Notes under the pieces: model-generated | Seen by the model: only the letters and a program-made list of their open reading frames with translations | What the model was told of the DNA's origin: nothing | Databases searched by the model: none | Translations under genes and position numbers: made by a program | Assembly: GCA_017962565.1 (NCBI GenBank) | Contig: JAGCVC010000001.1 | Location: 9,754 to 73,753, forward strand | DNA length: 64,000 nt | Direction of reading: 5' to 3' | From: Alphaproteobacteria bacterium | GTDB lineage: Bacteria > Pseudomonadota > Alphaproteobacteria > CAAHEQ01 > UBA3637 | Shown: in pieces, positions 752 through 53,549 of the stretch | How positions within the stretch are numbered: position 1 is the first letter of the stretch | Layout: every line of letters begins with the position of its first letter

Positions 752-1621
752 CTATTCCAAAATTGTATCAGCATCTTCCCAAACATTATCCAAATGGATG
801 GAATGTTGTAAGATATATAATTCGCTTATCAAGAAATAATAAGGATTGACTTTTGTTGAAATTTCTTCCCGTTCTTGTTCTTCCACTGCCAAAAGAACAC
901 GCATATAAGCCTTATAACGTTGAACATTGATTGCCGTTTCACGCATACATGTCAAGCATTTTTCGTCTTTTATGTAACATGGGCATTTTTGTTTTCCGTA
1001 ACCGCTTTCATTTAAAGAAAACACGTCATAAACGACTTCATAAAAATTCCGGCCATCAACATTTTTTATTGAATAAATGTAAATTTCCTGTGTTATGCCA
1101 CCGGCTTGACGTCTTAAAGCGGCTTCCGCTTCCGGTAAAAATGCTTCATAAAGTTTTGGGGCATAAGCAAAAACTTTCCCGTTTTGTCCCCAACGGCGCG
1201 TCATTTCTGCCCGATTAGATGTTACCTGATAACGCTGAATCAAATAATCTTGAATTAAATTTTGATAAATCAAATCCATTTTATTTAAAACGCGCCAAGA
1301 TTTTTCAACCGGTTTAAGTTCTTTGTTGTAATAATCCAAATTATATAAGAAAGTATCTTGACTGTTTGGATTATCCACAACCGCTTCGACCAAAGACGCA
1401 TTTCGAATGTAAATAAAACACATAGCAAAATTGAGTGTAATACTGATTAAGGTTGCAACCACCCAAAAACGTGACGTTTTTAAATAACGGCGTTCGGGTA
1501 AAGCTTCTACATGGAAGTGCTCCGGATAAGCTTCCAAATGGTCATTAGAAGCTTCTTCGCGGTAGCTTAAAGATGAAAAGACTTTTCGAAAATGCATCAC
1601 TATCTCCCTTGCTGATGCCAT
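752..1621 (-). CDS. Hypothetical bitopic membrane protein (289 aa; single TM near residues 52-73, Cys cluster CPCYIKDEKCLTC)
   Basis: Complete ORF; start 10 nt downstream of the stop of the giant 1631..9211 gene (likely co-transcribed); hydrophobic segment FWVVATLISITLNFAMCFIYI. Confidence 0.55.
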   Translation of the reverse strand: MASAREIVMHFRKVFSSLSYREEASNDHLEAYPEHFHVEALPERRYLKTSRFWVVATLISITLNFAMCFIYIRNASLVEAVVDNPNSQDTFLYNLDYYNKELKPVEKSWRVLNKMDLIYQNLIQDYLIQRYQVTSNRAEMTRRWGQNGKVFAYAPKLYEAFLPEAEAALRRQAGGITQEIYIYSIKNVDGRNFYEVVYDVFSLNESGYGKQKCPCYIKDEKCLTCMRETAINVQRYKAYMRVLLAVEEQEREEISTKVNPYYFLISELYILQHSIHLDNVWEDADTILE

Positions 1622-1630
1622 TCAATTGTA

Positions 1631-4600
1631 TCAGAGGCAGTTACCAAATTCATCTTGTGCAGTAGTACATGTTATAGGAACACATTTACCTGTTCCATTG
1701 CCCCAAAGCCATTTTGTATTGCTTCCTGCAGGGCAACAATCACTATTATTTCGATCAGCATCAACATATATACCTGAGCTACTGCAACAATGCCCTTCAT
1801 ACAGATAGTCAGAATCATTAAGGCATCGAGTTGGAGTACAATGCCCATTCGAATAAGTTGCTCTTGTAACAGTGTAACCAACATCTTCTTTCGGACATAA
1901 CCTGCATGAATGATCAGATAGATTAATACCTAGTCTAGCACCCTGATAAGCATCACATTCCGAACATTCACATGTAACACCCGGATTTAAATAGTGATCA
2001 CATGCTTCCTTACCATTTATAAATGTTTCATCACAATCTACACATTTTCCGTTCTGCACGAAATATCCAGTACTACACCTTGTACAAGAACAAGTGCCAT
2101 TGTTATTTACTGCCTCAGCACAACGTTCCATTTCATCCGCATTTGAACAAGGAGTACACACACCTGCAGAAAGACCAAAGCCATCCTTGCAAATACATTT
2201 ATTTTTAACAGTACTCCATTCCTCATTTGGTCCACAACATGACTGCTCATACCATTCACCGTTTTCACTATAATAATACCAGCCATTGTTATCACAGCAG
2301 TGTCCATTTAATAAAGTGTTGCCGGGGTCACATTTTTTACATTCACAAACACCGTCTACATCAGTTTCATATTCCGCACATGTAGTTTCATATGGTGAAC
2401 AAAACTTACATGTATTTGTTGTTGTGTCAATGGCATAATGATATTCATCACTACATGATTTGCAAACACATTTATTCAGCGTTGTATTATATTCATAGAA
2501 ATCGCAATAATCAACAAGATCATCATTGTTACACAACTGACAAGTACCCGTATTTTGAAGGTCAGGATCAGTAATAAGACCATAGGTATCATCCTCCCCC
2601 CATCTACGACACAAACTACACTCACAACTGATTCCCGGTTCCGTATAATAACCATCACCTTCAGGATCACATCCTTCAGGACATTCTACGCAAGTATGTT
2701 CTGCCGTCAATCCATATCCCCATGAACACTTTGTACAAACAGAAGCATTTGTGCACTGTGAACAATTTTCGGAACATTTTTGACAAACTCCATTTGCATC
2801 TTGGTAATATCCGGATGCACAAGGGAATGCGCATACACAACTCAACCCCGGTCTCAAATACGTCTCACATCCATAACTCGGACATGATACACATTTTCCA
2901 TTAACTAACTCATATCCTTTATCACACCTTAAACATTCGCAAGACAAGCCGGAATTAGCAAAAAGATCACAATGATGGGTATTATAATAATCACTTGCAC
3001 ATGGCTCACAATTATAAATATCAGCAACACCATTAGCATTCAAAGGAGGATAGTACCCTTTAGAACACCGTGCACAAGAACAATCAAATCCCGGATTTAT
3101 GTAATCAGAACATTTTATATTGCATGCTGTACAACGATTATTAACCAATTGATAGCCTTCGTCACAAGCAGCGCAAGTACAATCTATACCCGGATTCAAG
3201 AAACGACCATCACAAAAATAAAGTTCTCGTCCTTGAGCATTATCACATGCTTCACAAGAATAGTTTCCATCGCTATCTATTGTCCTATAATATCCTGGAT
3301 CACATTTTCCGCACTGTTTTGTTTCATCAACAAGACTTATACTGTCAACACAGTCTAAACAATGATCTGTATGTGTATCAAAACAGTACTCTGCCTCATT
3401 ATTAGCTGAAACATGACGACAATAACCTTTGGCGCATCCATCCCAAGAAATACAGTCACAAGTTAACCCCGGATCACCATAAACGGCACAGTCATTTGTT
3501 ATGTTTGTCGGACATTTAACACATTGATTCTCAACTAACTTGTATGTTTCATTGCACTTAGAACAAATACACCTCGACTGTGTACTATCATAAGAATAGG
3601 TATCGCAGCTTTCTACCAAATCTGAGGATTTGCATTCTACACATTGCTGATGATCAGAAGTCAAACCATAATAGGTTCCATCATCAGAATCACAATACAG
3701 ACAATCACCTGTTGTATCTGTTCTACCACACATACGAACCGATGACTCGCCTTGGCCCCAGAATCCTAAGAGGCACAAAGGATATTTTTCTTCAGTAGGA
3801 TAATCATACGCAAAATACTGCGTAGAGTAACCCCAGTCACTACAGTCACCGCACTCTATAGCGAAACAGCCTGTCAAACCACTATATCCTCTGTTAACGT
3901 TAAAATAAACCATTTTATATGGCATGTAGACGAGAGTAGTAGTTTCGCAAGTGTGCTCATCATTCTGTGTCCAATATTCCATTCTAAGAGGATAGGCTTC
4001 CCTGAATTGAGATGTAAGAGCTTTCAAATTATGGAAATAGAAGTGTACCATACTCGTATCTATATTATGTTGAGCACCATAATACTCACACCAACTGTGT
4101 GCACTCCACTGATTCAACCTCTTAGTATCATCAAATTCTTCGCCCGGTACCAAATACACACGACCGCTATCACCTGATAATACTGCCCGATCCATCGGAT
4201 AATCGGCATACGGTACACAACGACCTTCCCCAGCACCCCATGTCCAGTAAGCTTGTGAACAACTATGTGCATTTAATTCCACACCATTCAAAGGATTGCT
4301 GACATATTCTTCATATCCTAAGGCATGTAATTTTTCAATAATGATGTCAATATTTGCCTTAAGTTCAGTACACTGACGATCTTGTGTTGGAGCCGGAAAC
4401 GGATTATCAAACAAACAGAAGTATCCATCCGGACATCCCGTAAAATCACCAACAGCATCATCTTCTCCATATTCAGGATCTCTTCTACTACCCGCCGGAT
4501 GAGGATAACATTTCATTGTTACTATCGGCTCTCCTTTACATACACCTTCATCATTAAGTGTTTTACCTTCCGGACAACCCAAGTCACAAAGGGCATAATG

Positions 4601-7600
4601 TCCATTGCCTTCATTTCGATCTAAACCGGCAACATTATTAGTTTCGTAAGAATCAGCAACATGCGCAACACAATTATTTCCATAATCTTGCAACCAGAAT
4701 TTAAGATTACTACCTGTACTTGCAGCACTTCTCAAATTTGCATATCCGGTTGATGTACATGCCGTATCCGGATAACATGCTATGCTGTTTGTTGTTGCTG
4801 ATGGTGTCGGGCGACTTACTGTACTTTGTGATACACACCAACTTTGTGCACTCCACCAATTCATCGGTTTGCTACGCAACCACTTATGTCCATCAGCTGT
4901 TGTCACCTCGGAATTATCCGGTGCATAATCAGAGACAGGCAAACACTTACCAATTCCAGATTCTGCACAAGAGGTAGCATCTCCAAAATAACAGAACCCG
5001 CCTTCTGGACATCCGCCATTCTCCACGCCTTTTTTCGTCCAACTTCTACACAAAAGTTCTGCTTTACACAAAGCACGGATATTCTCCGGCCTTGGTGCAC
5101 CAATGCCCTTTAAGTCATCTTCAGAATAATAAGTCAAACTTACATTGCCATTTGCATCTTTGCCACCAACCACTACGGCATGAATGCAATTACATTCCGT
5201 TTGAGTACCTGCACAAGTGCCCCGACTACAACCATTAGATGTAGAATGGGATACATGACTGCCACCGTTTATCCAGAATGATCCACCGGTAATCTTTCCT
5301 GTCTTTACAAGGCTGACTAATTCATCATCAGTTGCAAGGTTATACCCATGTTCTGCATCATTACGTTCCATTTGTCCTATTGCCCAACAATAACTCTTGG
5401 CGGTTGCAGCACTTACTGAACCGAAAGTATTATAAACAAAACGATCAAATGCACTATCATTCAATAAAACACTTTGTTTACCCCAGAATGCTACCGGATT
5501 ACAAGCACCAATATTAGGTACTTCAGTATCGCCAGTAGTGGATTTTCTTATAGTATATGCTCCGGGTCCATCTCCAGATGAATCCGCACGACAAACAGCA
5601 GATCGCGAATAAGTACAGAAAGTACTTCCGGGGCCGATATTAGTAACATCACACACACCCCAATTAGAACATCCCCAAGGAACGCCTGTTTCCAAATCTG
5701 GTACGCATCTGTTACAACCGTCATTTTCTACAAGATGGTAACCCGTTTCACATGCTGCACATGCATGGTTTGAACCACTTATTGCGGTACAATGAGGCAT
5801 TAAACAATAACCACTTATTTTACAGGACTCTTCACAATTGCTTATACAATCCGTTGAATTACACAAGTGATCAAGGCATACACCATTCGCACAAGGCGGA
5901 TTTGGACAAGGTGGCGGTGAAGGACATGTACATATCCCATTGACATCAGGACATCTTTCCGGACATGGACATTTAGTATCCGGATCAGGGTACTCAGCAT
6001 CTTTGTCACGAAGAGAAGCCTCTAGTGGATCGGTTGGCATTACACACTTATATTTTGTACATGGACAATCTATATTTGCCTCTGGGTAGTACTTACTTGT
6101 ATCTTCTTCTGTACAAATATTACCATCGGAAAGTTCATGTGGCAAAGTATGTTGTACACATGGTGTCTTACATACCCATTCGCCGTCTTCATAAAAATCT
6201 TTCCAACCATCTCCACAAGGACATCTTAGCTTTTCATCAGTCGTTGCATTACCTGTAAAAGTCGTACGACATACATCATCGACAGGATCAACAGGAACTT
6301 CTTTACGATGCGCTTCATTTGTCGGCTTTATACATGAACATCCTTCACATTTACAATATACAACAACCTTCGAATATGATTGATAAATCCATTTTGGCAA
6401 TCGAATTCTACCTTCTGCCGTACAATCTGTTTCATCCTCAACACATATACGTTCACACGTTTTATTATCACTGCTCTTGCTCCAACCTGTATACTTTACT
6501 CCGTCTATTGTCAAACCAGAGACAGATAAATCTTTTCCAGTCATACACGGACATGATTGATTTGGCGTATCATATTCCTGTCCTTCATTGTATTCTGTAC
6601 AACATGGATTATAATCGGATGAATCAATCGTTGGCTTTTTACAAGGATAAGAATACTCAATGCATGGGCAATAATCATCATCCGCATTTGTTAAGGAATA
6701 ATTATTATATGCGACGCACCCTTCTATCTTATGGGCTTCGTCACGTTCTCTACAATAGCATCTATGTACGCTTTCAGGAGCAGGCCCCACTCGATCCGGA
6801 TACTCTGCCGGACAAAGACAGCTAACCCCTTTCGACCACGTCGTCGGACATGTTCCATTTGATAAAAGACCGCCCGACAAAAGCGTACCTGTAATCCGGT
6901 GTGGATCTTCATGCGGGTCATACCCATCAGGTGTTACACAATAACAACAATCAGCACAACACGGACAAGGTCCTGCGTTTGTTGAACAAGAATCATACGC
7001 AGAACACCCTTCTATTGCGTTTGCACTTGTTCTTGTCTGACAATAACATTTTTTTGTACTATCATTTCCACAAGTTCTTTCTTCATAATTACTTGTATCA
7101 CAATAGCATTTCGTAGTCTCATTATACGTAGATGCGCATACCTGATGATAATTTGCATCTAACGCCCTTATAAGACGACGTGCAGCATCTTCTGTATCAG
7201 TCGGCATCACACAATTACAGTTACATGGACAGAACGGCACAACACCGTTTGTCACTTGTGATGCAGCATAAACTGTCGACGTATTTTCTGATCCGTTACA
7301 CAAAGGATCCGTATTACCCGGCGTACAACAATAATCTTTACATGTACAAGAAACTACGCTACTTGGATGTTCACTGTGCACCCATTTTTCATTTTCATTA
7401 TATGAATGACAATTGTTACCAACTCCTGTGCCTGTACAACTGCTGTTAGGTATTCCTGGAACGCAACTACGTACGCACTGATTACCGCTAATGCTCCAAC
7501 CACCATAGTTTACTCCATCGATGACCAAACCGGTATCTCTTAAATCAAGGCTGTTATCATTTACATCTGTACATGGACAAGGTTGATTTGGTGTAGAATA

Positions 7601-9211
7601 CGTCCGTGTTTCATCATACCCGAGACAACATGGATTACCCGTAGGCACTTTACATTTGTATTCTATACACTTGCAATCTCCCTCATGTGTTGCGTATGAA
7701 CTCGTTCCATCCCCGTCTTCATATTTAACGCAATCGTCAATTTTTTTGAACTTACAATAACATCCTGAACGACCATTATCATTCGGATTTGTTCTTTCTT
7801 CACGATTTCCTCTACATGGGCATATAAATTCCGGAGCACAAACAGCACCACTCAAACTACCTGTCTCATTTGTTTCCGGATTAACACGATTGTTCGGATT
7901 AACACCTTCTACATTACATATTGTATAACAATGCCCATCACTTTTCTTTCTATAACCCTCTTTACATGTTGATTCACAAACAAGACATTCTTGATCTGTT
8001 GAAAATGCCTCGGTAGCATAATCAGCACAGGTGTCAGCATCATCCGGCACGTAACACATAAGTTTTGTACACGGACATCCACCACCTTTTTCTGTTGCAG
8101 GAGTTGCTTCATTCCATTCTTTACACTGGCAAGGCGGCCAATCTTGATTTCCGCTGTGACAGAACCAACCGGTACAAGCACAACACTCTGATGTTCCTTC
8201 AAATTCATCGTTATATTCTACACATTCTTCATCTCTTGGACATTTTTTGCTACCAGGATAAGGATTTATACAAATTCTGATTTTTATACAAAGCCCCGTA
8301 GGCTCGTCCAATTCAAATCCTTCCTCGCATTCTTTACAAGGACATTCATCTGACTGTTCAGCATAATTATAATCGACACAATGCGCAATCTTCACAGGAT
8401 CACAAGCAAATTCAACCGAATCTTCACCAAAACAAGCACACGTTTCCGGATTTATTCCACCTTCTTCCTCACAGTCATCCGGAACGCACTTTCCACCACA
8501 ACTGACAGTTCCGAGCGGACAACACCTTTCTGGTCTATCAACTCCATCACCTAATTCGTTTCTAAGATCATTTAAGCAAAGAGCTCTTCCTTCACTAAGT
8601 CCCTCACAACAACAACCATTACACAACTCAGCAGCAGTACATCCTTCTGCACAGGAAGGATTACCGCTGAAATAGAAACGAACAGTCACAGTTGTTTCTC
8701 TCTCTTCTATTGGCTCATCTTCTATTATTTTCGGTTGGCAAATGTCTTTTGGTTTTGTTTCATCTTTTTTAAAATCTCTTACTTCACCTTTTGTAATAAT
8801 CGCCATTTTATGTTTATCTTGTGCTTTTGGCAACAAAACCGAACAATCATCCGGCAATACTGTCGGCACATCAATATAGAATGATTCCCCTGAATCTTTG
8901 ACTGCTGCCAACGCGTATATACTGTTCCCTCTGAAATCCGTTTCAGCGATTACTGCGCCTTCTTCAATTTCCCCTTTAGGGATATCTTCCAAACGTTCAT
9001 ATATCGTAAGAGCCAAACGTTCCACATCATCGGCGATCTGATTAGCATGGTGGTGATTGATTGATATATGATACAAAGATATACCTGCTATACTCAATAT
9101 GCCCACAATAGCCAGAACGCCCAGCATTTCCAACATAGAACGTCCTTTCTGAATAGCAAATTTCACGGTTGTTTTCTTTTGTTTTTTGAAGAAATTCAGA
9201 GGATTTAACAT
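1631..9211 (-). CDS. Giant (2526 aa) cysteine-rich modular surface protein with N-terminal prepilin-type (class III) signal/pilin-like helix; dozens of EGF/furin-like Cys-rich repeats (CxxC...GY.LVN..C..C), NxT/S sites
   Basis: Uninterrupted 7.58-kb ORF; strong RBS AAGGGAG 9 nt upstream of ATG at 9211; N-terminus KG|RSMLEMLGVLAIVGILSIAGISLY (G, E at +5, ~20 hydrophobic residues) matches type IV pilin/pseudopilin leader; extreme Cys content with periodic spacing. Confidence 0.8.
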   Translation of the reverse strand: MLNPLNFFKKQKKTTVKFAIQKGRSMLEMLGVLAIVGILSIAGISLYHISINHHHANQIADDVERLALTIYERLEDIPKGEIEEGAVIAETDFRGNSIYALAAVKDSGESFYIDVPTVLPDDCSVLLPKAQDKHKMAIITKGEVRDFKKDETKPKDICQPKIIEDEPIEERETTVTVRFYFSGNPSCAEGCTAAELCNGCCCEGLSEGRALCLNDLRNELGDGVDRPERCCPLGTVSCGGKCVPDDCEEEGGINPETCACFGEDSVEFACDPVKIAHCVDYNYAEQSDECPCKECEEGFELDEPTGLCIKIRICINPYPGSKKCPRDEECVEYNDEFEGTSECCACTGWFCHSGNQDWPPCQCKEWNEATPATEKGGGCPCTKLMCYVPDDADTCADYATEAFSTDQECLVCESTCKEGYRKKSDGHCYTICNVEGVNPNNRVNPETNETGSLSGAVCAPEFICPCRGNREERTNPNDNGRSGCYCKFKKIDDCVKYEDGDGTSSYATHEGDCKCIEYKCKVPTGNPCCLGYDETRTYSTPNQPCPCTDVNDNSLDLRDTGLVIDGVNYGGWSISGNQCVRSCVPGIPNSSCTGTGVGNNCHSYNENEKWVHSEHPSSVVSCTCKDYCCTPGNTDPLCNGSENTSTVYAASQVTNGVVPFCPCNCNCVMPTDTEDAARRLIRALDANYHQVCASTYNETTKCYCDTSNYEERTCGNDSTKKCYCQTRTSANAIEGCSAYDSCSTNAGPCPCCADCCYCVTPDGYDPHEDPHRITGTLLSGGLLSNGTCPTTWSKGVSCLCPAEYPDRVGPAPESVHRCYCRERDEAHKIEGCVAYNNYSLTNADDDYCPCIEYSYPCKKPTIDSSDYNPCCTEYNEGQEYDTPNQSCPCMTGKDLSVSGLTIDGVKYTGWSKSSDNKTCERICVEDETDCTAEGRIRLPKWIYQSYSKVVVYCKCEGCSCIKPTNEAHRKEVPVDPVDDVCRTTFTGNATTDEKLRCPCGDGWKDFYEDGEWVCKTPCVQHTLPHELSDGNICTEEDTSKYYPEANIDCPCTKYKCVMPTDPLEASLRDKDAEYPDPDTKCPCPERCPDVNGICTCPSPPPCPNPPCANGVCLDHLCNSTDCISNCEESCKISGYCLMPHCTAISGSNHACAACETGYHLVENDGCNRCVPDLETGVPWGCSNWGVCDVTNIGPGSTFCTYSRSAVCRADSSGDGPGAYTIRKSTTGDTEVPNIGACNPVAFWGKQSVLLNDSAFDRFVYNTFGSVSAATAKSYCWAIGQMERNDAEHGYNLATDDELVSLVKTGKITGGSFWINGGSHVSHSTSNGCSRGTCAGTQTECNCIHAVVVGGKDANGNVSLTYYSEDDLKGIGAPRPENIRALCKAELLCRSWTKKGVENGGCPEGGFCYFGDATSCAESGIGKCLPVSDYAPDNSEVTTADGHKWLRSKPMNWWSAQSWCVSQSTVSRPTPSATTNSIACYPDTACTSTGYANLRSAASTGSNLKFWLQDYGNNCVAHVADSYETNNVAGLDRNEGNGHYALCDLGCPEGKTLNDEGVCKGEPIVTMKCYPHPAGSRRDPEYGEDDAVGDFTGCPDGYFCLFDNPFPAPTQDRQCTELKANIDIIIEKLHALGYEEYVSNPLNGVELNAHSCSQAYWTWGAGEGRCVPYADYPMDRAVLSGDSGRVYLVPGEEFDDTKRLNQWSAHSWCEYYGAQHNIDTSMVHFYFHNLKALTSQFREAYPLRMEYWTQNDEHTCETTTLVYMPYKMVYFNVNRGYSGLTGCFAIECGDCSDWGYSTQYFAYDYPTEEKYPLCLLGFWGQGESSVRMCGRTDTTGDCLYCDSDDGTYYGLTSDHQQCVECKSSDLVESCDTYSYDSTQSRCICSKCNETYKLVENQCVKCPTNITNDCAVYGDPGLTCDCISWDGCAKGYCRHVSANNEAEYCFDTHTDHCLDCVDSISLVDETKQCGKCDPGYYRTIDSDGNYSCEACDNAQGRELYFCDGRFLNPGIDCTCAACDEGYQLVNNRCTACNIKCSDYINPGFDCSCARCSKGYYPPLNANGVADIYNCEPCASDYYNTHHCDLFANSGLSCECLRCDKGYELVNGKCVSCPSYGCETYLRPGLSCVCAFPCASGYYQDANGVCQKCSENCSQCTNASVCTKCSWGYGLTAEHTCVECPEGCDPEGDGYYTEPGISCECSLCRRWGEDDTYGLITDPDLQNTGTCQLCNNDDLVDYCDFYEYNTTLNKCVCKSCSDEYHYAIDTTTNTCKFCSPYETTCAEYETDVDGVCECKKCDPGNTLLNGHCCDNNGWYYYSENGEWYEQSCCGPNEEWSTVKNKCICKDGFGLSAGVCTPCSNADEMERCAEAVNNNGTCSCTRCSTGYFVQNGKCVDCDETFINGKEACDHYLNPGVTCECSECDAYQGARLGINLSDHSCRLCPKEDVGYTVTRATYSNGHCTPTRCLNDSDYLYEGHCCSSSGIYVDADRNNSDCCPAGSNTKWLWGNGTGKCVPITCTTAQDEFGNCL

Positions 9212-9311
9212 TATTGTGGCTCCCTTTTTAAATTAGTTTTTTTTAGTCTACTCCCTTTCATTACTCTTTGCAAGCATAAATTTTCAATATTTTCTATTTT
9301 TTTCTTTTTCG

Positions 9312-9340
9312 TTGACTTTCAAACAAATATGCGGTACATT
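9312..9340 (+). promoter_or_regulatory. Candidate sigma70 promoter (TTGACT-17 nt-TACATT) upstream of small ORF 9381 and phosphatase gene
   Basis: -35 TTGACT at 9312-9317, 17-nt spacer, -10 TACATT at 9335-9340, about 40 nt upstream of ATG 9381. Confidence 0.35.
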
Positions 9341-9380
9341 TCAAGCAGTTGCGTGAATAATTAAAAAGGATTTTAATACG

Positions 9381-9563
9381 ATGTCAAGAGATGATACCTT
9401 CAAGGAAAATCAAACGGTGGAAAACACTTCATGTAGTGAAGAAGAACGGGCGGAAATTCAAGAAGGTTTGACCATTTTAAACTCTGACGCGCCAAAAGAA
9501 GTTAAAACTCAACAATTAAAGAAACTATTTGAAAAACGCAAGAAGCGCGAAAGAGGATATTAG
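9381..9563 (+). CDS. Small hypothetical acidic/basic protein (60 aa), possibly co-transcribed with downstream phosphatase
   Basis: ORF only; stop overlaps region of RBS for next gene; no homolog recognised. Confidence 0.3.
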   Translation: MSRDDTFKENQTVENTSCSEEERAEIQEGLTILNSDAPKEVKTQQLKKLFEKRKKRERGY

Positions 9564-9564
9564 A

Positions 9565-10374
9565 ATGCAAATAACATTACTAAGACACGGAAAATACGAA
9601 CAATCAGTCGGACATCTGACCGATGAAGGAATAAACGATACAGTTACGGCAGGGCTTTCTTTGGGAAATGCCGTTGTAAAAAAGTTGCCAGACATTGTGT
9701 ATTGCGGCGCAGAATATCACAGTGATATTTTAATCCCAATAAATTTTTTGCCTAAGGAATATCAGGAGCCAATTCAAGCACCTGATTTGATTTTGACATC
9801 CCCATCACTTCGTACAAAAGAAACGGGATTTGCCTTTGCGGAACAGTTGAAGAATACCGGTATACTAACAGAAACCCGAAACGACATTGCTTATTTGAAC
9901 GATTTGGATTTAATTTCAAATGATTACAAACTTAATCACCATGACTATATAGATGAAGAAACTGCTAAAAAGATGACTTCCCTTCCCCCTATTCAAAAAA
10001 CAGTTGATTTAATCAAACGTTTAGAAAAAGAAGGCAAAAAGCACGTTGTAATTGTTTCTCATCAACCGAATATTCATGTATTATTGAATTTATTATCAAA
10101 AGAACCCGGAATTGCCTTAAAAGCGCCTGAAAATAGTGTTATTTATACAGTTTTATCTGTTAATGCGGAAAATATAGGTAAAGAAAAGTACCCAACGCAA
10201 ATGAGATGGATAAAATCTTTTGATTTAAAGAGAGCATATTCTCTGGCTTTTTCCGTAGCCGGAATTTACGTTCCATCAGCAGAAGATATTAAATGGAAAA
10301 TGCCGGATTACATGTATATGGATATTCTGGCCAATAAGAAAAATGAACGCAACAATGGCAAAAGCCGAGTATAA
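9565..10374 (+). CDS. Histidine phosphatase superfamily protein (phosphoglycerate mutase-like; RHG motif)
   Basis: N-terminus MQITLLRHGKYEQS... contains catalytic RHG signature; RBS AGAGGA 8 nt upstream of ATG at 9565 (ORF track start 9529 is probably too long). Confidence 0.65.
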   Translation: MQITLLRHGKYEQSVGHLTDEGINDTVTAGLSLGNAVVKKLPDIVYCGAEYHSDILIPINFLPKEYQEPIQAPDLILTSPSLRTKETGFAFAEQLKNTGILTETRNDIAYLNDLDLISNDYKLNHHDYIDEETAKKMTSLPPIQKTVDLIKRLEKEGKKHVVIVSHQPNIHVLLNLLSKEPGIALKAPENSVIYTVLSVNAENIGKEKYPTQMRWIKSFDLKRAYSLAFSVAGIYVPSAEDIKWKMPDYMYMDILANKKNERNNGKSRV

Positions 10375-28364: not shown

Positions 28365-31082
28365 TTAATATTCACAAGATCCATTGTTATAGGTACGAAC
28401 ATGCTGGCTTCCAGGATAGTCACATTTGTCGCATTCTTCCTTTGATGTTTCCTTGGCGTTCGCGTTAAAACATCTTGTACAATTACCATTGGCATTTCTG
28501 AACCACCCCAACGGACACGACCAATCGCAATAACCATCCTCACCTATTTCACGGGTACCACATGACAAACATTCTGCATCATTATAAGCCCCTCTTCTGT
28601 AAAGATCTTCACAACTTCTACACTGTTGATCTGAACTCCAATATTTACCGGCTCCACATTTTGGTACATTCGTTCCATCACATGTCGCACCGGATGGACA
28701 ATTTGCACAACTGCTACCATTCCAGTACTGATTACTATTGCAAGATGTTGCCGTTACACGCGTTCCGTCGCATGTTGCACCCTCCGGACAATTTACACAA
28801 GAACTGCCGTTCCAATACTGATTTGTTCCATGACAGCAATTCACGTACAAAGCGTTAGAAGCGCTATTAGTATTAGGAGCATAGGTATGTGAAACATAAC
28901 CGGCCTTACAACTTGCCCCCGTTCCGTCACATGTTGCGTTATTTGGGCAATTCCTGCAAGTATTACTAATCCAATATTGATTACTTTTACAACAAGCCAA
29001 ATTTCCGGTAGAAGTCATATGTGAAGTATAGTCGCCTCCACAATTTCCTTCCGAACCATTACATGTCATACCGTTTGGACAAGAAACACACTTATTACCG
29101 TTCCAATATTCCTTCGTGTTGCTGCAACAATACGAAATACCGGAATAGTTTGTATGTAAAATATAGCCACTTGGACAATTATCTCCTTCACATGTTGTAT
29201 TATTATTCGGACAAGCATTACATTTATTACCACTTACATATCTACCTTCGCCGCAATCTACTATAGTAAAGCCATCACATCTTGCATTGTCAGGACAATT
29301 AGCACAATTAGTCCCATTTTTATATTTACCTTCGCCACAATTTGTTATTTTTCCTGCCTCACATGTCGCACCGCTTGGACAAGCAGCACAACCGTTATCA
29401 TTCCAATATTGATTTGAAGTACAACAATATTTATCGGCTCCGTTTTTCTCAAACAAGAAGGAACCCTCATTACATCTTACATTTTTCCCATCACATGTTC
29501 CACCGTTTGGACAATTCTTACAAACACCTGCGTTATTCAAATACTTACCACTACCACAATCTGCTTTTGTTCCATCACATGTTGCACCGTTAGGACAAGT
29601 TTTACACGAATTAGTTTCATGATCATAGTATAAGAAACCATTACCGCCACAATTTACACCGGTTCCATTGCATACTGCACCGGAAGGACAAATATAACAT
29701 CCCCCTTCTTCTAACAAATACTTACCTTCCCCACAAGTTTCTATACCCGTTTCGTTACATGTTGCATAGGATGGGCAGAAAGAACAAAAGGATCCATTCC
29801 AATACTCATTTGCACTGTTACAACAATACAAATTAGGAACGTTGCCATGTGAAATATAGTTCGCCGCACAACCATTTACATTCACTCCATCGCATATTGC
29901 ACCGGTTGGGCAAGGTTTACAAGCACCTATTTTATTCAAATAATAACCAACGCCACAATTTGCATTCGTTCCGTCACATGTTGCACCGTTCGGACAAAAT
30001 TGACAGACACCCGTCCAATATTGACTTGTATTGCCACAGCAACCTACATTTTGTCCTTCTTTATGAAGAGTGTAACCTTCCGCACAACCCGTTATATTTT
30101 TACCATCGCACACCCCATGAGCGATGCACGATGAGCAATTAAACTTACGTTCATTCCAATATTCTCTTCCTATTTCACAACAATACGCGTTGTTTTGATA
30201 TACCTTAGCTAATAGATACCCTGACGGACAATCCGCACTTGTTCCATTGCACGTCATACCAGTCGGACAAAATTCACATGTTTCGCCATCCCAATATTCG
30301 CTTTGTTCTCTACAGCATCCGTACAGTTCTTCAATATTACCATTGAACACATAACCTTCGTGGCAACTGAATTTTTTTCCGTCACAAACCAAATTACTAC
30401 CCGGGCAATCTGCACAATTACCATTTCTATCTATATATTTACCTTCACCACAGTTTGCGTTTGTTCCATTACATGAAGTAAGACCATCCGGGCAACTTGC
30501 ACAATTGCCATCATTGTCTACATATTTACCTTCCCCACAATTTGCATTCGCACCATCGCATACTGCACCCGCCGGACATGTTGCGCAACTGGATCCATTC
30601 CAATATTCATCTTCTTGGCATCCATAATCTTTAGGCTTGACCCCACCTTTACTGCCGTCAAATGCTATACCTATGTTATTGAATTCTGCACATGATGCCT
30701 TCTGAACCAGTGCCATTTCGCCATTTTCATAGACATCGTAGTAAACTACCTTTCCCCCCTTCATCTTTAACATATGTTCGCAGATTTTTTCCGGAACCTC
30801 TATCGCTTGCACATATGTTATTAACTTACCATGACCTGTTGCACGTATAACTTTAAATACAAACCCGCTTTCCGCCGCTATAGAGTATTCTGTCCAATTT
30901 GGATATTCTGTCTCTGTTGATTCAACCGATCCATATATCAAAGATGCATCCTGAATCGCTCTATTGGCTCTATTCTTATTCATCACATAAGAAAAACCAA
31001 ATAATGCTGCTACACTCAATATACCTATAATTGCCAATACACTCAGTGTTTCCAGCATGCTACGTCCGCGTTCATTTCTCAT
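28365..31082 (-). CDS. Cysteine-rich modular protein (905 aa) with N-terminal prepilin-type signal (RG|RSMLETLSVLAIIGILSVAALFG) and about 18 tandem Cys-rich modules of roughly 35-40 aa (YCC..EYWNG..C..CP.GATCDG.NANCGEGKY)
   Basis: Uninterrupted ORF; RBS GGAGGAAAG 9 nt upstream of ATG 31082; N-terminal 30 residues about 75% identical to those of the 2526-aa protein; regular Cys spacing throughout. Confidence 0.8.
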   Translation of the reverse strand: MRNERGRSMLETLSVLAIIGILSVAALFGFSYVMNKNRANRAIQDASLIYGSVESTETEYPNWTEYSIAAESGFVFKVIRATGHGKLITYVQAIEVPEKICEHMLKMKGGKVVYYDVYENGEMALVQKASCAEFNNIGIAFDGSKGGVKPKDYGCQEDEYWNGSSCATCPAGAVCDGANANCGEGKYVDNDGNCASCPDGLTSCNGTNANCGEGKYIDRNGNCADCPGSNLVCDGKKFSCHEGYVFNGNIEELYGCCREQSEYWDGETCEFCPTGMTCNGTSADCPSGYLLAKVYQNNAYCCEIGREYWNERKFNCSSCIAHGVCDGKNITGCAEGYTLHKEGQNVGCCGNTSQYWTGVCQFCPNGATCDGTNANCGVGYYLNKIGACKPCPTGAICDGVNVNGCAANYISHGNVPNLYCCNSANEYWNGSFCSFCPSYATCNETGIETCGEGKYLLEEGGCYICPSGAVCNGTGVNCGGNGFLYYDHETNSCKTCPNGATCDGTKADCGSGKYLNNAGVCKNCPNGGTCDGKNVRCNEGSFLFEKNGADKYCCTSNQYWNDNGCAACPSGATCEAGKITNCGEGKYKNGTNCANCPDNARCDGFTIVDCGEGRYVSGNKCNACPNNNTTCEGDNCPSGYILHTNYSGISYCCSNTKEYWNGNKCVSCPNGMTCNGSEGNCGGDYTSHMTSTGNLACCKSNQYWISNTCRNCPNNATCDGTGASCKAGYVSHTYAPNTNSASNALYVNCCHGTNQYWNGSSCVNCPEGATCDGTRVTATSCNSNQYWNGSSCANCPSGATCDGTNVPKCGAGKYWSSDQQCRSCEDLYRRGAYNDAECLSCGTREIGEDGYCDWSCPLGWFRNANGNCTRCFNANAKETSKEECDKCDYPGSQHVRTYNNGSCEY

Positions 31083-31290
31083 ATGACTTTCCTCCTCTGA
31101 TAGGAACTATTTTCTCAATTTTAACTTTTACCTTCTAATTATCTGATTTGTCAAGTACTTTTTATATTTTTTTTACATCATACTAAATTCGTTTTAGCAT
31201 TCTGCTGTGAAAAGACTCTGAAATTCAAAATAACACCATGCACACCAGACCATAAAAACGGAATCTTATGGCCTTTTCCGCACAAAAAAG

Positions 31291-34200
31291 TTAAATTTGT
31301 TTGATTTGACGTATACCCGGAATTGAACACAAAGCACCGATTGTATCGGATGATAGAGCATACCCGTTTGGCAATTTGATTTCCACTTGGTAATCATTGG
31401 CCTGAACAACAATAATTGCCGTTCCGCGTCCTTTTTTGTCTGCATCTAAAACTTGTTTTACTCTTGGTAAACAAGAAGCACTTTCCACATAAATCATAGC
31501 CGTTTCGGACATACTAGCCACAACATCGGCCAAATATTCAACATTTTGGACTGTTGCACGTACAGCACCTTCTTCGTTTAAATCAGCGGCCAACGACACA
31601 ATCAATGGCTTGTTTGATTCCAATTTTTCACGACTTTGATTCAACATTTCGGAAAAGCACAGAGCTTCAAAAGTTCCAACAGTATCCGAACCAACAATAA
31701 AAGCAAATTTCTTACCGCTTTTTTGACTGATTCTTTCGCGTTTTTCATTGATAATACAAGCAATTCGCAAACGTGCTGAACCGGCGCTTTTCACTAAAGG
31801 TTCAATTTCATTTGTAAAGTTAACACGCAAACGTTCAAAGTTATCTGCATAAGCATCCAACGGGTGCGCAGATAAATAAAAACCGACAGCTTCACGTTCC
31901 AAATCCAATTTTTGCATTGCCGGATAATCGGGAATTTCCTGCATGCGCAATTCTTCAAAAGATGCTTCCCCGCCAAAAAGTGAAGCTTGCGAACTTTCTC
32001 TTGATTTTTGTAAACTGGCTGCATGCTGTCCCATTTTTTCGACATTTGCCAATAATTTTGCCCTGTTTTTATCCAAACAATCCAATGCACCGGATTTAAT
32101 CAAACTTTCCAAACAACGTTTGTTCATAACGGCCGGACTTGAACGCGCAATAAAATCTTGAATAGACTTATACGGTCCGTTCTTTTCACGTTCTGCGACC
32201 AATTCTTCCACAGCACCGTCACCCACATTTTTAAGCGCAGATGCAGCATAGCGAATAGCACCGTCTTCCACCGTAAAATTAACACAAGATTTATTAACAT
32301 CCGGGGGCAAAATTTTAATCCCCATTTGCGAAATTTCACGTTTAAAGAAACCCAATTTATCCGTATCGATTTTATCCAAAGTCATTGTAGCGGCCATAAA
32401 TTCAACCGGGTAATGCGCTTTTAAATAAGCTGTTTGGTAAGAAACAAAGGCATACGCCGCTGCGTGTGACTTATTAAAGCCGTAGCTGGCGAATTTTTCC
32501 ATTAATTCGAAAATTTCAATAGCTTTTTCTTCTGCAACACCCTTCTTTTTAGCGCCTTCAATAAAGACTGCTTTTTGTTGTTGCATCACATCAAATTTCT
32601 TTTTACCCATAGCACGGCGCAACAAATCTGCTCCGCCCAAACTGAAACCGGCTAATACTTGAGCAATTTGCATAACCTGCTCTTGATAAATCATAATACC
32701 GTAAGTTTCTTTTAAAATACCTTCCAACAAAGGATGTAAATAATCGGGTTGTTCTTGTCCGTGCTTACGTGCAATATAGGATGGAATATTTCCCATCGGA
32801 CCCGGACGATACAAAGCCACAATAGCAACAATATCTTCGATCTTATCGGGCTTCATATCTTTTAAAATTTTGCGCATACCGGCACTTTCTAACTGGAACA
32901 CCCCGGAAGTATCCGCATCACCCAACAATTTAAATGTATCAGGATCATCCAAAGGAATAGCACTTAAATCAAATTCAATTCCTCGAAGCTTCAATAATTC
33001 CATCGTCTTTGCCAACGTGGTTAAAGTCTTTAATCCCAAAAAGTCAAACTTGATCAACCCCGTTGACTCAACATATTTCATGTTGTATTGAGTTACCGGC
33101 ATATCTGATGACGGATCTTTATAAATCGGCAAAATTTCATTTAAAGGAAAACGTCCGATAACAACACCGGCTGCGTGTGTAGAAGTATTACGGTATAAGC
33201 CTTCCAATTGCAAAGCAATTTCGAGCAAATGTTTAATTTGCGGCTCATTTTTTGCTTCTACTTCAAAAGCCGGTTCAATATCCAATGCTTCTTGCAAAGA
33301 ATACGGCTTGCCTTTTTCATTCATACCGTTTGGTACTAATTTTGAAAGCCTATCCACAACCGGATAAGGAATTTGCAACACGCGCCCGACATCTCGAATA
33401 ACCGCTTTAGGTTGCAACTGACCAAAAGTAATGATTTGCGCCACATGATCAAAGCCATAATGATCTTGCACATATTTGATACTTTGTTCACGCTTTTCCT
33501 GGCAAAAATCCACGTCAAAATCCGGCATGTTCACACGTTCCGGATTTAAAAAACGTTCAAACAACAAATTAAAACGCAAAGGATCAATATCGGTAATTGT
33601 TAAAGCCCATGCCACCACAGAACCGGCACCCGAACCACGACCCGGACCGACCGGAATATTATGTGCTTTTGACCATTGAATAAAATCCGCAACAATTAAA
33701 AAATAACCGGGAAAGCCCATCTGCTTAATTACGCTCAATTCATACTGTAAGCGCTGATTATATTTTTCAAACTCATCAGAGCGATTTTTCATACGCGCGG
33801 CCAAACCGGTTTCTGCTTTTTCACGCAAGACTTCATCTTCCGTTTTACCATGACAATCATAGCGCGGAAATTCGGGCTTATGAAACTCCACCATAAAACC
33901 GCAACGTTTAGCTATTTGAACCGTATTTTCCAAAGCTTCCGGTAAATCGGAAAATAATTCAGCCATCTCTTCCGGGCTTTTTAAATAATGCCCCGGCGAT
34001 AATCGTACTCTGTCTGTTACATCAACATATGTTTTTTGACCTATACACATCAAAGCATCATGCGCTTCATACATTTCCGGTTTATCATAAAAAGCTTCGT
34101 TTGTTGCAACCAAAGGAATATCCAAATCAAATGCCAATTTTAAAAATTCATCTTCTGTTTTAGCTTCGTCCGGTTCACCGGTTCTGGAAATTTCCATATA

Positions 34201-36438: not shown

Positions 36439-37031
36439 TTTCCAGAAAAAAGAATTATAAGAACCATTATTATAATAAATAAAATTTGTATTTTAAAATT
36501 TAACATATCGGTCGTGTCTGCTCTTTTGCCTTTCATTTTGCCCAAATAGAACCTTAAACGAAGTAACATCATATTCAATACAACCAACACACAAATATAA
36601 GCAGACCATTTAATTGACAAAATAGGAATGCTGAAACCCACAGGAAGCACTGCACTTTTCCATAGTTTTTCTTTCTTTTTCTTGCCAAAAAAACACCATG
36701 ATAATTGTACACTTATTACAGATAAAAAAGCAAAGCCCCAATTTCTTAAGGTATTATCGATATATCCTATTGCAAAAGGTATGGAAGAAAAGAAAATTCC
36801 CACCAACCATATAAAAGCAATAACCTTTTTCAAAAAAGAAACCAAAAAATTATTTCCTTCTATTAACTCTTGTTTGGTGAGTTCTTCGGAATCATTATCA
36901 ACATCATCTGCATTCATAGATTGCGCCACAAAACTTTCCCCACCCATTTGAAAGAAAGGATTGAGTTGTTTTCTTTTGGATGATTTTTTCAATTTTATCT
37001 TACCCATACCATTCCCTTTTTTAATCATCAC
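36435..37031 (-). CDS. Hypothetical membrane protein (198 aa) inserted between lol permease and ATPase genes
   Basis: ORF with 4-nt overlap to lolD start; several TM segments; exact start uncertain (internal Met at residues 2 and 9). Confidence 0.5.
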   Translation of the reverse strand: MMIKKGNGMGKIKLKKSSKRKQLNPFFQMGGESFVAQSMNADDVDNDSEELTKQELIEGNNFLVSFLKKVIAFIWLVGIFFSSIPFAIGYIDNTLRNWGFAFLSVISVQLSWCFFGKKKKEKLWKSAVLPVGFSIPILSIKWSAYICVLVVLNMMLLRLRFYLGKMKGKRADTTDMLNFKIQILFIIIMVLIILFSGK

Positions 37032-38250
37032 AAGTTCTGTCTATACCGCCATTGGCAAAATTAATAAAAGCAGAACCCGTCAATTCTCTTTTTTCTCCTT
37101 TATCCGTATAGCAAAAACTTTTTATCATTTTTCCGTCTTTGAATTCACTTTCCATCGACAAAGAACCGTTTTCATTATATAATCGTTCATAACCGTTCTC
37201 TTTATCGTCTTTAAATTGAGTTTCTTGTATAATTTGACCATTATCTAAATATATTCGGAAAAATCCTTCTCTTTTCCCGTTAACAAAATCTGTTTCTTGT
37301 CTGACACCAAAACGAACGGCTGTTTTTCCATCTGCATGCGGATAATATATTTGTTTTCCTTCTTGTTTTCCGTCTTTGTAATAGAAAGTCGAAACAATCT
37401 CTCCGTTTTTGTTAAATGTCTTTGCCGGACCATTTGCAACACCATTTACACGTTCAAACGTTTCGAACAAACTTCCGTCCGGCGAGTAAACTTCAACTGT
37501 TCCATGCTCTATTCCATTCACATACGGTATCTTCCACAATTTATCTTGTTTTTCCACTTCGGCAACACTATTACGGAAAACACAATAACCGTTTTTCATC
37601 TCTCTGTTACTACAACGTGCGCAATCTTCTTCGGAATAACGAAAATCTTTATCGGAACAACTTTCGCATCTGCCAGAATAGGTATTTTTCAAAGGATATT
37701 TTTCATTCAAACACTTTTTAGGAACGCAATGATCATTGAAAAATTCTGCGTTTGAACACTTTAAACATTCGCTTTCTGAAACACTCCACGCAACGTACGT
37801 TTCCGGACAAGACACACAGTAACCATCTTTGTCCCTTATTTCACCTTCTTTACACTTGTAGCGACATTTCCCGTCCAACCAAACACGATTGTCAAGTGAC
37901 TCACAGTCTTTTTGATTTGTTGTATTTACGGAAGGCCCCCTTTTAGTCTCCCAATGTTTGACTTGCTGCGTGCGTACAAAGAAAATAGAAGAAAAAAGCA
38001 CACCCGTTAAAAGAATGTTAGATAAAAGAAATATCCCTAAAAACTTCCATTTACGTGCAAGGACAGAAAAAAGAATAAAGAAAAACAAATACATTCCCAA
38101 AAAAACAAAAAAAGTAATGGGAGTTTCCACTATAAGATAGTATCGTGTTTCTGTCGGAAGAAGAAATACAATACATAAATATATTCCCAACAATGAAACA
38201 CATACCAATAAAGATAAAAATAAAGATTTTAATACTGTTAATTTTTTCAT
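37021..38250 (-). CDS. Membrane-anchored protein (409 aa): 3 N-terminal TM helices, Cys-rich linker, C-terminal MORN/YwqK-like repeats (G..EG....Y..NG....E..FKDGK)
   Basis: Complete ORF overlapping downstream gene by 11 nt; repeated YxxxGxxxG/FKDGK motifs characteristic of MORN-repeat proteins. Confidence 0.6.
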   Translation of the reverse strand: MKKLTVLKSLFLSLLVCVSLLGIYLCIVFLLPTETRYYLIVETPITFFVFLGMYLFFFILFSVLARKWKFLGIFLLSNILLTGVLFSSIFFVRTQQVKHWETKRGPSVNTTNQKDCESLDNRVWLDGKCRYKCKEGEIRDKDGYCVSCPETYVAWSVSESECLKCSNAEFFNDHCVPKKCLNEKYPLKNTYSGRCESCSDKDFRYSEEDCARCSNREMKNGYCVFRNSVAEVEKQDKLWKIPYVNGIEHGTVEVYSPDGSLFETFERVNGVANGPAKTFNKNGEIVSTFYYKDGKQEGKQIYYPHADGKTAVRFGVRQETDFVNGKREGFFRIYLDNGQIIQETQFKDDKENGYERLYNENGSLSMESEFKDGKMIKSFCYTDKGEKRELTGSAFINFANGGIDRTCDD

Positions 38251-51469: not shown

Positions 51470-52018
51470 ATGAAAAAATCAATTACAATCACAGGTTCTT
51501 TGGGTTCCGGAAAATCAACTGTTGCCAAAAAATTGAGTTCAGATTTGGGATTGACTTATTATTCAACCGGTTCTGCGCAACGGCAAATTGCCGCACAAAT
51601 GGGCATTACAACGTTGCAACTAAATCATCTTGCAGACAAAGATAAAAGCATCGACGAAAAAATTGATGGCGTTATTAAAAATATGAATAATGACGGGAAT
51701 GCCTATATCGTAGATTCTCGTCTGGCATGGCATTTTATGCCCGCTTCATTCAAGGTCAAATTGATTGTTGAAAAGACACACGCAGCGCAACGCATTTTTA
51801 ACGACAATTTACGCTCATCAGAAAGCAAGTATAAAAATGTAGATGAAGTAATCAAAGCAATTGAAGAACGCCGTCAGAGTGAACGAGAACGCTTTTTGCG
51901 CGTATATCAAGTTGACATTGAAAATAATTCTGCTTTTGATCTGGTTGTTGATACAACGAATCTGTCCATTGATGAGGTCTGTCAACAAATCAAAAACGCT
52001 TATCAGAAAGCTATCTGA
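51470..52018 (+). CDS. Cytidylate kinase-like family P-loop NTP kinase (182 aa)
   Basis: Walker A GSLGSGKST at N-terminus, short (archaeal-type/Cmk-like family 2) architecture; 10 nt downstream of asmA stop. Confidence 0.6.
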   Translation: MKKSITITGSLGSGKSTVAKKLSSDLGLTYYSTGSAQRQIAAQMGITTLQLNHLADKDKSIDEKIDGVIKNMNNDGNAYIVDSRLAWHFMPASFKVKLIVEKTHAAQRIFNDNLRSSESKYKNVDEVIKAIEERRQSERERFLRVYQVDIENNSAFDLVVDTTNLSIDEVCQQIKNAYQKAI

Positions 52019-52161
52019 AAGTTTTATTCTTAATACTCCATTATGGTCTATATCAGAACAGCTTATACAAAATAAGCTTTTTTCCCTATTTTCATTGACT
52101 TTACCCATTCTTAATGCCAGCATTTTGAAAAACAAAATGTTATAAATAAAAGGATGGAAAA

Positions 52162-52530
52162 ATGTATAAAGAAAAAATCTTACCTGTAAAAAATTGGTTG
52201 ATGGCATGTTTTAACATAAAAAAAACATGCCTTGATGAAAATTTCAAAACAAACAAATTTAACATTCCCATTCAAATACATGCAAATACAAAACCGTCTT
52301 TGCCCATCCATATTGCCCTATCATCAAACAAACCGTATAAAATCAATTCCGCAATAATAAATGCATTAGGTGGGTTAAATAACATAGAAACTTATCATGA
52401 AATTCCAAATTCCAGACGAATACGTCTAACGTTGGTCAATCCGTCTTTAATCAATAACACTCTATTGGAAGAATTGGATGTACGTATGTTTATTCGGATA
52501 GGAAAAAAGATTGTACATATTATCCCGTAA
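52162..52530 (+). CDS. Hypothetical protein (122 aa)
   Basis: ORF only; convergent with virB11. Confidence 0.4.
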   Translation: MYKEKILPVKNWLMACFNIKKTCLDENFKTNKFNIPIQIHANTKPSLPIHIALSSNKPYKINSAIINALGGLNNIETYHEIPNSRRIRLTLVNPSLINNTLLEELDVRMFIRIGKKIVHIIP

Positions 52531-52545
52531 AACGGGACTACAGCA

Positions 52546-53535: not shown

Positions 53536-53549
53536 TAACCCCTCTCTTT

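Follow-up and report, generated by a model that had tools for sequence, protein, structure and literature searches.

A 2,526-residue cysteine-rich protein with a type IVb pilin module, probably a giant modular pilin, from an uncultured lineage of gut Alphaproteobacteria

We analyzed a stretch of 64,000 nucleotides (the window) on the 280,827-bp contig JAGCVC010000001.1 of an "Alphaproteobacteria bacterium" metagenome-assembled genome (MAG), and in particular the gene on its reverse strand that encodes a Cys-rich protein of 2526 aa, here called the giant. The window is chromosomal given that rpsB, tsf, and dnaE are encoded in it. A first-pass annotation, made from the sequence alone, had described the gene as an intact open reading frame (ORF) with a ribosome-binding site and its product as a modular pilin, in which a prepilin-type N-terminus is followed by Cys-rich modules. 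The frame from 1631 to 9211 (−) is indeed uninterrupted, with 2526 codons and a stop, and direct reading of the sequence places a GGGAG Shine-Dalgarno element ahead of the ATG at 9211 (Table 1). A full-length search of 5.8 billion proteins returned the giant itself and one ortholog only (P0002), which has 2467 aa, is 44% identical to the giant, and is encoded at a syntenic locus in a second metagenome. Given this intact ortholog, we ruled out that the gene is a pseudogene or an assembly artifact, and the earlier proviso that it might prove to be frameshifted in other strains falls away; the gene is real and intact. Cysteine accounts for 10.3% of the residues (260 Cys). The spacings CxxC and CxC occur 38 and 41 times compared to about 27 ± 5 in shuffled sequences, an enrichment of about 1.5-fold, whereas CC is depleted (13 observed, 26 in shuffles). 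The many N-x-S/T sites that had been remarked on are a matter of chance, since 25 were observed against 21.7 ± 4.2 in shuffles, and we rejected an enrichment of N-glycosylation sites in the giant.

Table 1. Features of the giant's gene and of two other genes in the window. Coordinates are positions in the window; residue numbers (aa) are those of the giant.
Feature	Coordinates	Strand	Remarks
Whole gene	1631..9211	-	GenBank MBP5533890.1, locus tag J6Y03_00060
Shine-Dalgarno GGGAG	9220..9224	-	8 nt upstream of ATG
Leader peptide, aa 1-23	9143..9211	-	Basic, Gly(-1) last; 23 aa typical of type IVb pilins; predicted cleavage after Gly23
Type IVb pilin module, aa 24-165	8717..9142	-	Arg+1, Glu+5, alpha-1 helix aa 25-76, beta-sheet, Cys123/Cys158 pair
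Cys-rich region I, aa 186-1185	5657..8656	-	Internal duplications aa 464-629 ~ 798-960 and 501-549 ~ 1037-1085
C-type-lectin-like domain copy 1, aa 1207-1329	5225..5593	-	Weak match (E 0.012) to HMM of 315-aa-class passengers
C-type-lectin-like domain copy 2, aa 1393-1543	4583..5035	-	HMM E 2.7e-23; preceded by a small Cys knot
C-type-lectin-like domain copy 3, aa 1659-1782	3866..4237	-	HMM E 3.3e-7; internal repeat with copy 2
Cys-rich region II, aa 1820-2526	1634..3754	-	~13 repeats C-x-C..C..GY.LVN..C..C, divergent furin-like
289-aa single-pass membrane protein	752..1621	-	Directly downstream of the giant; synteny kept, 84% identical in the second genome
905-aa paralog	28365..31082	-	Same GRSMLE pilin module, then a different Cys-rich repeat, 102 Cys

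The N-terminus of the giant reads MLNPLNFFKKQKKTTVKFAIQKG followed by RSMLEMLGVLAIVGILSIAGISLY, the proposed cleavage point lying between the two. It follows the class III signal pattern: a basic leader of 23 aa with a net charge of about +6 ends in KFAIQKG, which places Gly at −1, and after it come Arg at +1, Glu at +5 (RSMLE-MLGVLAIVGILSIAGISLY), and about 20 hydrophobic residues (alpha-1N). The first-pass annotation had asked for a structural check of this segment, and the AlphaFold2 (AF2) model bears it out: a 52-residue alpha-1 helix packs on an antiparallel beta-sheet, in keeping with the pilin fold, in which a long N-terminal helix of about 50 residues lies on such a sheet. The best fold matches of the module are the type IVb pilins CofA, TcpA, and PilS. 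Assignment to type IVb is also consistent with the leader length, which falls within the range of about 15 to 30 aa for this class, and with a +1 residue that is not Phe. When a profile built from 37 relatives sharing this signal was compared with the PDB, the top matches were all type IV pilins (FimA, TcpA, PilA, geopilin, and PAK pilin), and the Glu of the family aligned in register with Glu5 of FimA, TcpA, and PilA. The pilin-type N-terminus that had been read from the sequence is thus supported by both the matches and the model. The giant itself has no match to Pfam PilS (PF08805) or Bundlin (PF05307), and its module aligns over 172 residues (26% identity, E 2e-17), well past the helix, to a pilin encoded beside a type IVb operon of the same lineage, which is described below.

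The Pfam N_methyl model was matched by all 37 family members scanned, each time below threshold, and the 905-aa paralog likewise stays under the cut-offs of PF07963 (14.2 bits against 21.2) and TIGR02532 (13.3 against 16.3). Such a subthreshold match, together with an n-region of positive charge and the ~20 hydrophobic residues behind it, could also be expected of an ordinary Sec signal peptide or anchor that resembles a pilin by coincidence. A Sec signal peptide is disfavored given that no Ala-x-Ala-type site lies downstream of the hydrophobic stretch and that this segment continues unbroken into the amphipathic part of the 52-residue helix on its pilin-type sheet. In addition, the signal is conserved far above the level of Sec signals, and the module is homologous to the operon-linked PilS-type pilin. 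We rejected this explanation, which is highly improbable and far less likely than the two other alternatives considered below, a membrane anchor and an export handle.

The giant is one of a large family. A profile of the first ~190 residues finds more than 5,400 proteins, and the pattern G-R-S/T-M-x-E-M-L-G-V-L-A-I is present in 127 of the 129 sequences read, the other 2 being N-terminally truncated. The signal that defines this family, which we call the GRSM family, is G↓RSM[VIL]EMLGVLAIIG (the arrow marks the proposed cleavage point). Its host range consists almost only of gut "Alphaproteobacteria bacterium" MAGs of humans, rabbits, and ruminants, and the lineage is uncultured. The species-representative genomes of GTDB hold at least 585 copies, with several loci per MAG, and the paralogs number dozens per genome and carry different passengers. 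The 905-aa paralog in the window begins with GRSMLE, as had been stated in the first-pass annotation, and the suggestion made there that Arg at +1 is a leader variant of this lineage agrees with its invariance in the family members read and its presence in the operon-linked PilS/Bundlin-type pilin. We found no description of this family, of pilins of gut Alphaproteobacteria, or of giant prepilin-type proteins in the searchable literature.

Most members have a basic leader of 5 to 10 residues and a mature length of ~145 aa, which is ordinary pilin size. Among the 192 family ORFs in the loci that we fetched, mature lengths range from 120 to 2504 residues; 13 ORFs have lengths from 600 to 1000 aa, and one truncated ORF is longer than 1100 aa. 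Sizes in the family therefore form a continuum, and the giant is its extreme member rather than a singleton. The members of at least 600 aa in these loci all contain 8 to 12% Cys. A 609-aa GRSM pilin at locus L068 (10022-11848, +) has a passenger that passes the Pfam teneurin EGF models (EGF_TEN, 78 bits), so that here, too, a pilin of the lineage carries a module of eukaryotic type; nine further large members are without any Pfam domain. At a further locus (L005; GCA_045632845.1, JAZQXL010000018.1), 15 GRSM pilin paralogs of ~150 aa stand in tandem on both strands between 1750 and 15600 of a 16.7-kb locus, an exceptional local expansion of pilin genes.

The fetched loci were screened with the E. 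coli Gsp and Hof proteins for pilus genes. This gave a PilB-type ATPase and a platform protein at one locus (L024) and an A24 peptidase at another (L073). According to Pfam, L024 holds a full type IVb operon with a TcpQ-like protein, a secretin, PAP_PilO, T2SSE, T2SSF, and a bundlin-like protein. The pilin gene directly after this machinery (L024:9995-10678) encodes a protein that reads ...QSGRSMVEMLGVLAIIGVLSIGG, carries GRSMVEMLGVLAIIGVLSIGG, and passes both Pfam PilS (56 bits) and Bundlin (46 bits). The L024 ATPase retrieved 80 gut-metagenome loci; all 80 contain an ATPase ortholog, and 41 of them also contain a GRSM pilin. Operon loci that are long enough have the same gene order, in which the machinery genes are followed by 1 to 3 GRSM pilins whose mature forms have 180 to 208 residues. 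In L024, the platform gene and the gene for the major pilin are separated by a gene (9263-9877) for a conserved protein of ~200 aa, with an equivalent in 61 of the 80 operon loci; its product matches Pfam Bundlin with 27 bits and has an N-terminal membrane helix without GRSM, which makes it pilin-like and apparently not a substrate of the peptidase. No obvious GRSM minor pilin was seen in the operons, and the scattered family members may therefore fill the minor-pilin role. Near small family members, no pilus machinery was found at the four loci examined.

The L073 peptidase (2975-3679) passes Peptidase_A24 with 54.7 bits and has the GAGDVK motif; on its MAG contig, a Cys-rich GRSM pilin of 296 aa is encoded at a distance of 6 kb. 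The 165 relatives found for this peptidase have lengths of 226 to 265 aa, and each contains PF01478 only (e.g., P0130-P0249); one of them, from another MAG, is named "prepilin peptidase [Alphaproteobacteria bacterium]" by GenBank (MBO7244031.1). The peptidases of the lineage thus lack the N-terminal domain linked to N-methylation even though the pilus system belongs to type IVb rather than to Tad; Tad-type peptidases are likewise without an N-methylation domain (PMC10191384). We infer that Arg at +1, where Phe or Met is usual, goes together with a non-methylating peptidase, and the guanidinium group of this Arg might replace the N-terminal amine in the salt bridge to Glu5 known from type IV filaments. 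Cleavage of the giant by a prepilin peptidase, and its N-methylation, are predictions. The evidence for the machinery and the peptidase stands at the level of the lineage and comes from related MAGs: none of the 165 lineage-peptidase matches lies on the giant's contig. We examined 85 kb of this contig, namely, the window with 10 kb to its right and, to its left, flanking sequence towards the contig end. No pilus genes and no peptidase were found there, and the only secretion genes are those of a VirB8-11 type IV secretion cluster. A link between the giant and these neighboring VirB genes was considered and rejected, given that no relation between the two is known and that the giant's signal is that of type IVb pilins.

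Self-comparison and family hidden Markov models (HMMs) divide the giant into five parts, namely, the pilin module, a short acidic linker, region I, a Trp-rich block (aa 1186-1790), and region II, and the passenger behind the pilin module comprises ~2,350 residues. Pfam and NCBIfam searches with the full protein and with five Cys-rich segments gave no family above threshold. For region I, no homolog was detected in Pfam or the PDB, the ortholog aside. The domain that is repeated in the Trp-rich block also occurs as the single C-terminal passenger of family members of ~315 aa. The earlier view that everything after the N-terminus is unlike any pilin must be revised accordingly, since many pilins of the GRSM family carry such a central domain as their only passenger. 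In total, 29 members contain the domain, and it is the C-terminal passenger in 27 of them, the two giants being the exceptions. The central domain has the fold of a C-type-lectin-like domain (CTLD), and its best structural matches are mostly animal C-type lectins; a Pfam Lectin_C match and a relevant PDB sequence match were both absent. Given that the EPN/QPD and WND calcium and sugar motifs are missing from all 35 aligned copies, we rejected a canonical calcium-dependent lectin.

Region II did not pass any of the curated repeat models tried (Furin-like, Furin-like_2, EGF, and Ephrin_rec_like). Below threshold, it gave 16 bits with Ephrin_rec_like, for which 23.1 are required, and E 0.01 with the furin repeats of R-spondin; in PDB sequence searches, the whole protein returned weak R-spondin matches only and a profile of the 13 repeats returned none. 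An exhaustive phmmer search of aa 1820-2526 against 1.84 billion representatives found 50 relatives at E ≤ 1e-3, none of which has a pilin N-terminus. The top named relatives are proteins of Tetrahymena thermophila, T. malaccensis, and T. utriculariae, with E values of 4.6e-40 to 1e-10 and 45 to 49% identity per repeat stretch. These Tetrahymena proteins pass Pfam Furin-like_2 (PF15913) exactly where the giant matches them, and by this transitive homology region II consists of furin-like repeats that have diverged and that have their nearest known relatives in eukaryotes. The furin-like impression that the C-terminal repeats had given the first-pass annotation agrees with this, as the only strong relatives are ciliate proteins.

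These relatives raise the question of where the passenger modules came from. It is possible, though we consider it rather unlikely, that eukaryotes such as gut ciliates were the source of the furin-like and C-type-lectin-like modules and that these modules mimic or bind eukaryotic surface proteins, an explanation that is compatible with a pilin carrier. Only 50 of 1.84 billion representatives match region II and the top named ones are from Tetrahymena, animal C-type lectins predominate among the best structural matches of the central domain, and genes for ankyrin-repeat proteins and for a type IV secretion system are present in the lineage as well. The G+C content of region II is 0.37 to 0.39, like the rest of the gene, and does not indicate a recent transfer.

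The two genomes that carry a giant have diverged unevenly at this locus. The products of the flanking genes are well conserved, with 77% identity for the nitroreductase and 84% for the downstream 289-aa membrane protein. Identity between the giant and its ortholog is 58% in the pilin module, 43% in region I, 27 to 40% in the lectin block, and ~27% in region II, where the repeats are reshuffled. Divergence thus grows toward the distal end, which, as judged from these alignments, is the pattern expected of an exposed and fast-evolving binding surface or adhesin. The orthologs P0002 (residues 1-75) and P0003 (residues 1-62) have leaders of about 55 to 62 aa compared to 23 aa in the giant. The additional 30 to 40 residues are rich in Cys and Lys (e.g., KSTGCCKFVCDMMKKFCRLLKDFSC) and are located between the conserved MLNP..KKQ start and QKG↓R.

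We consider it probable that the product of this gene is a giant modular pilin of type IVb, and the modular-pilin interpretation of the first-pass annotation is supported as a whole by a genuine type IVb pilin module ahead of the passenger. In the mechanism that we propose, the N-terminal hydrophobic helix would insert the prepilin into the inner membrane, and a short A24 prepilin peptidase would cut after Gly23 to leave Arg at +1. The 140-residue pilin module would then be taken up by the type IVb machine (secretin, PilO-like protein, PilQ-type ATPase, and PilR-type platform), which would also polymerize the PilS/bundlin-type major pilins of the lineage, of ~190 aa and with the same signal. 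Type IVb minor pilins are modular and located at the tip (PMC10191384; PMC5207764; PMC6048534), and by analogy with TcpB, CofB, and R64 PilV, the giant may be a low-abundance subunit at or near the pilus tip. Its passenger, with 260 Cys, could form a long disulfide-stiffened stalk of region I, three lectin-like domains, and ~13 furin-like repeats and could act as an adhesin toward a eukaryotic or microbial surface.

Several observations weigh against assembly of the giant into a pilus. To our knowledge, Arg at +1 has no characterized precedent, and the giant scores 13.0 bits with Pfam N_methyl (PF07963), below the cut-off of 21.2. No peptidase or pilus machinery was found in the giant's own MAG within 85 kb of its 281-kb contig, and none of the 80 operon loci has a modular family member within 10 kb. 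The giant retains Glu5, unlike many tip-capping subunits, which often lack it (PMC10191384). It also has 2526 residues, whereas the most elaborate case that a 2021 survey of modular pilins (PMC8179133) names has 860. A passenger of ~250 kDa would need to pass a secretin, and 130 disulfides would need to form in the periplasm of a probable anaerobe.

Part of this evidence would also suit a pilin module that is a mere membrane anchor or short pseudopilus stem, with the giant remaining bound to the envelope like a pseudopilin of a type II secretion system (T2SS). Modular members are encoded far from pilus operons, the passenger far exceeds any described pilin passenger that we found, and dozens of paralogs per genome (15 in the 16.7-kb L005 locus) seem to be more than a single pilus needs. 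However, alpha-1N is near-invariant across the family, which is a signature of helix packing in a filament and not of a plain anchor, the major pilins of the operon carry the same signal, and a 250-kDa Cys-rich fiber has no obvious periplasmic role. We regard such an anchor as unlikely. We give still less weight to an export handle, in which the type IVb machine would pass the giant through the secretin and the protein would then be released, in soluble form or loosely bound, as an adhesin or coat protein. Type IVb pili do double as T2SS-like secretion devices (PMC10120004, PMC9565799, PMC6048534), as illustrated by TcpF and CofJ, which are exported by the TCP and CFA/III pili, but a pilin module is absent from the known effectors that type IVb systems secrete, and neither a second cleavage site nor a linker motif is evident between the giant's pilin module and its passenger. 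A modular pilin thus remains our preferred reading of the giant, and "pilin plus passenger" members of the family probably act as adhesins on pili. It is conceivable, as a broader and more tentative proposal, that one type IVb pilus serves as a display platform for dozens of swappable passengers that are addressed by G↓RSM.E and handled by a non-methylating peptidase. The giant, with ~250 kDa, 130 disulfides, and eukaryote-type modules, would be the extreme case and would bind or mimic host or protist cells.

Comparison with known systems places the giant among modular pilins and also sets it apart from them. TcpB of Vibrio cholerae and CofB of enterotoxigenic E. coli have ~420 to 520 aa, are encoded inside the pilus operon, and carry beta-repeat or beta-sandwich passengers, whereas the 2526-aa giant is encoded away from any operon seen, is Cys-rich with lectin-like and furin-like modules, and has Arg rather than Met at +1. 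The operon content of the lineage matches that of the R64/IncI thin pilus (PilL-V, with PilS as the major pilin and PilV as the adhesin with its shufflon). The matching parts are a TcpQ/PilL-like protein, a PilN-type secretin, PAP_PilO, a PilQ-type ATPase, a PilR-type platform, and a PilS-family pilin, and in both cases the variable part that sets specificity is the C-terminal part of a pilin-type adhesin. R64 makes variants of one gene by DNA inversion, whereas the lineage has dozens of separate genes with different passengers and encodes its peptidase outside the operon.

Modular pilins are widespread. The 2021 survey compiled 1,219 modular pilins via the InterPro N-terminal methylation signature and catalogued three architectures that join a pilin to a C-type lectin (PMC8179133). 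The GRSM family differs from the surveyed proteins in failing that signature, and region I of the giant is without any signature. The design is shared with the surveyed proteins and with PilB (vWA) and PilC (lectin) of Streptococcus sanguinis, in which a small pilin module carries a functional passenger on a short linker; adhesion is the theme proposed to unite them. Intimin, invasin, and further bacterial adhesins with a C-type-lectin-like domain at their end resemble the giant in that a rod of repeated domains presents a compact lectin-like fold without the EPN/QPD and WND motifs; they are, however, autotransporter-type outer membrane proteins with Ig-like rods, whereas the giant has a pilin carrier and holds its lectin-like domains in the middle of the chain. 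The Tetrahymena Furin-like_2 proteins share the C..C...GY.L....C..C repeat with aa 1820-2526 but are eukaryotic secretory proteins without a pilin module, and the giant does not reach any Pfam threshold. The working principle is therefore that of a modular pilin in the sense of S. sanguinis PilB and PilC. What is new in the family is a signal that escapes the standard signature, a methylase-less peptidase in a type IVb context, and a very large number of paralogs; what is new in the giant is a passenger about three times the size of the most elaborate surveyed case, with modules otherwise typical of eukaryotes.

The surroundings of the gene contain further large and repetitive proteins. The 289-aa membrane protein encoded directly downstream is without a Pfam family, and its 84% identity across the two genomes contrasts with the adjoining pilin, in which identity falls to 27 to 58%. 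A VirB8-VirB9/CagX-VirB10-VirB11 cluster occupies 53550-60545 (−), together with 52546-53535, 60651-62261, and 62383-63144. Its VirB10/TrbI protein is unusually large at 2331 aa, with ~16 five-fold and 6 four-fold beta-flower repeats and RHS/YD repeats ahead of the TrbI domain. The window also encodes a 1567-aa protein with faint Pfam matches only (13722-18425, −), a 910-aa protein with pentapeptide repeats and BspA-type leucine-rich repeats (18873-21605, +), and a MORN-repeat protein (37021-38250, −), and ankyrin-repeat proteins are encoded beside pilin genes at the related loci L001 and L002. This repertoire of large-repeat, MORN, and ankyrin proteins is reminiscent of bacteria that interact with eukaryotic cells. 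The G+C content is 0.39 to 0.42 at 2000-9200 (giant pilin), 26000-34000 (paralog and dnaE region), and 52000-62000 (giant VirB10) and 0.33 to 0.36 in the rest of the window. The higher values of the pilin genes are probably an effect of their Cys- and Gly-rich composition rather than a sign of foreign origin.

In summary, our study describes an abundant and previously undescribed pilin family in gut metagenomes of humans, rabbits, and ruminants, with a non-canonical signal and passengers of up to ~2,350 residues. Modular pilins are believed to account for the many functions that simple type IV pili gain, and those known carry one or a few hundred extra residues and were found by a signature that the GRSM family fails. 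If the giant is truly assembled, it would raise the upper limit for export by a type IV pilus machine and its secretin and would possibly be the largest pilin subunit yet seen. It would also be an example, accessible to experimental tests, of a bacterial pilus that displays adhesion modules like those of eukaryotes.

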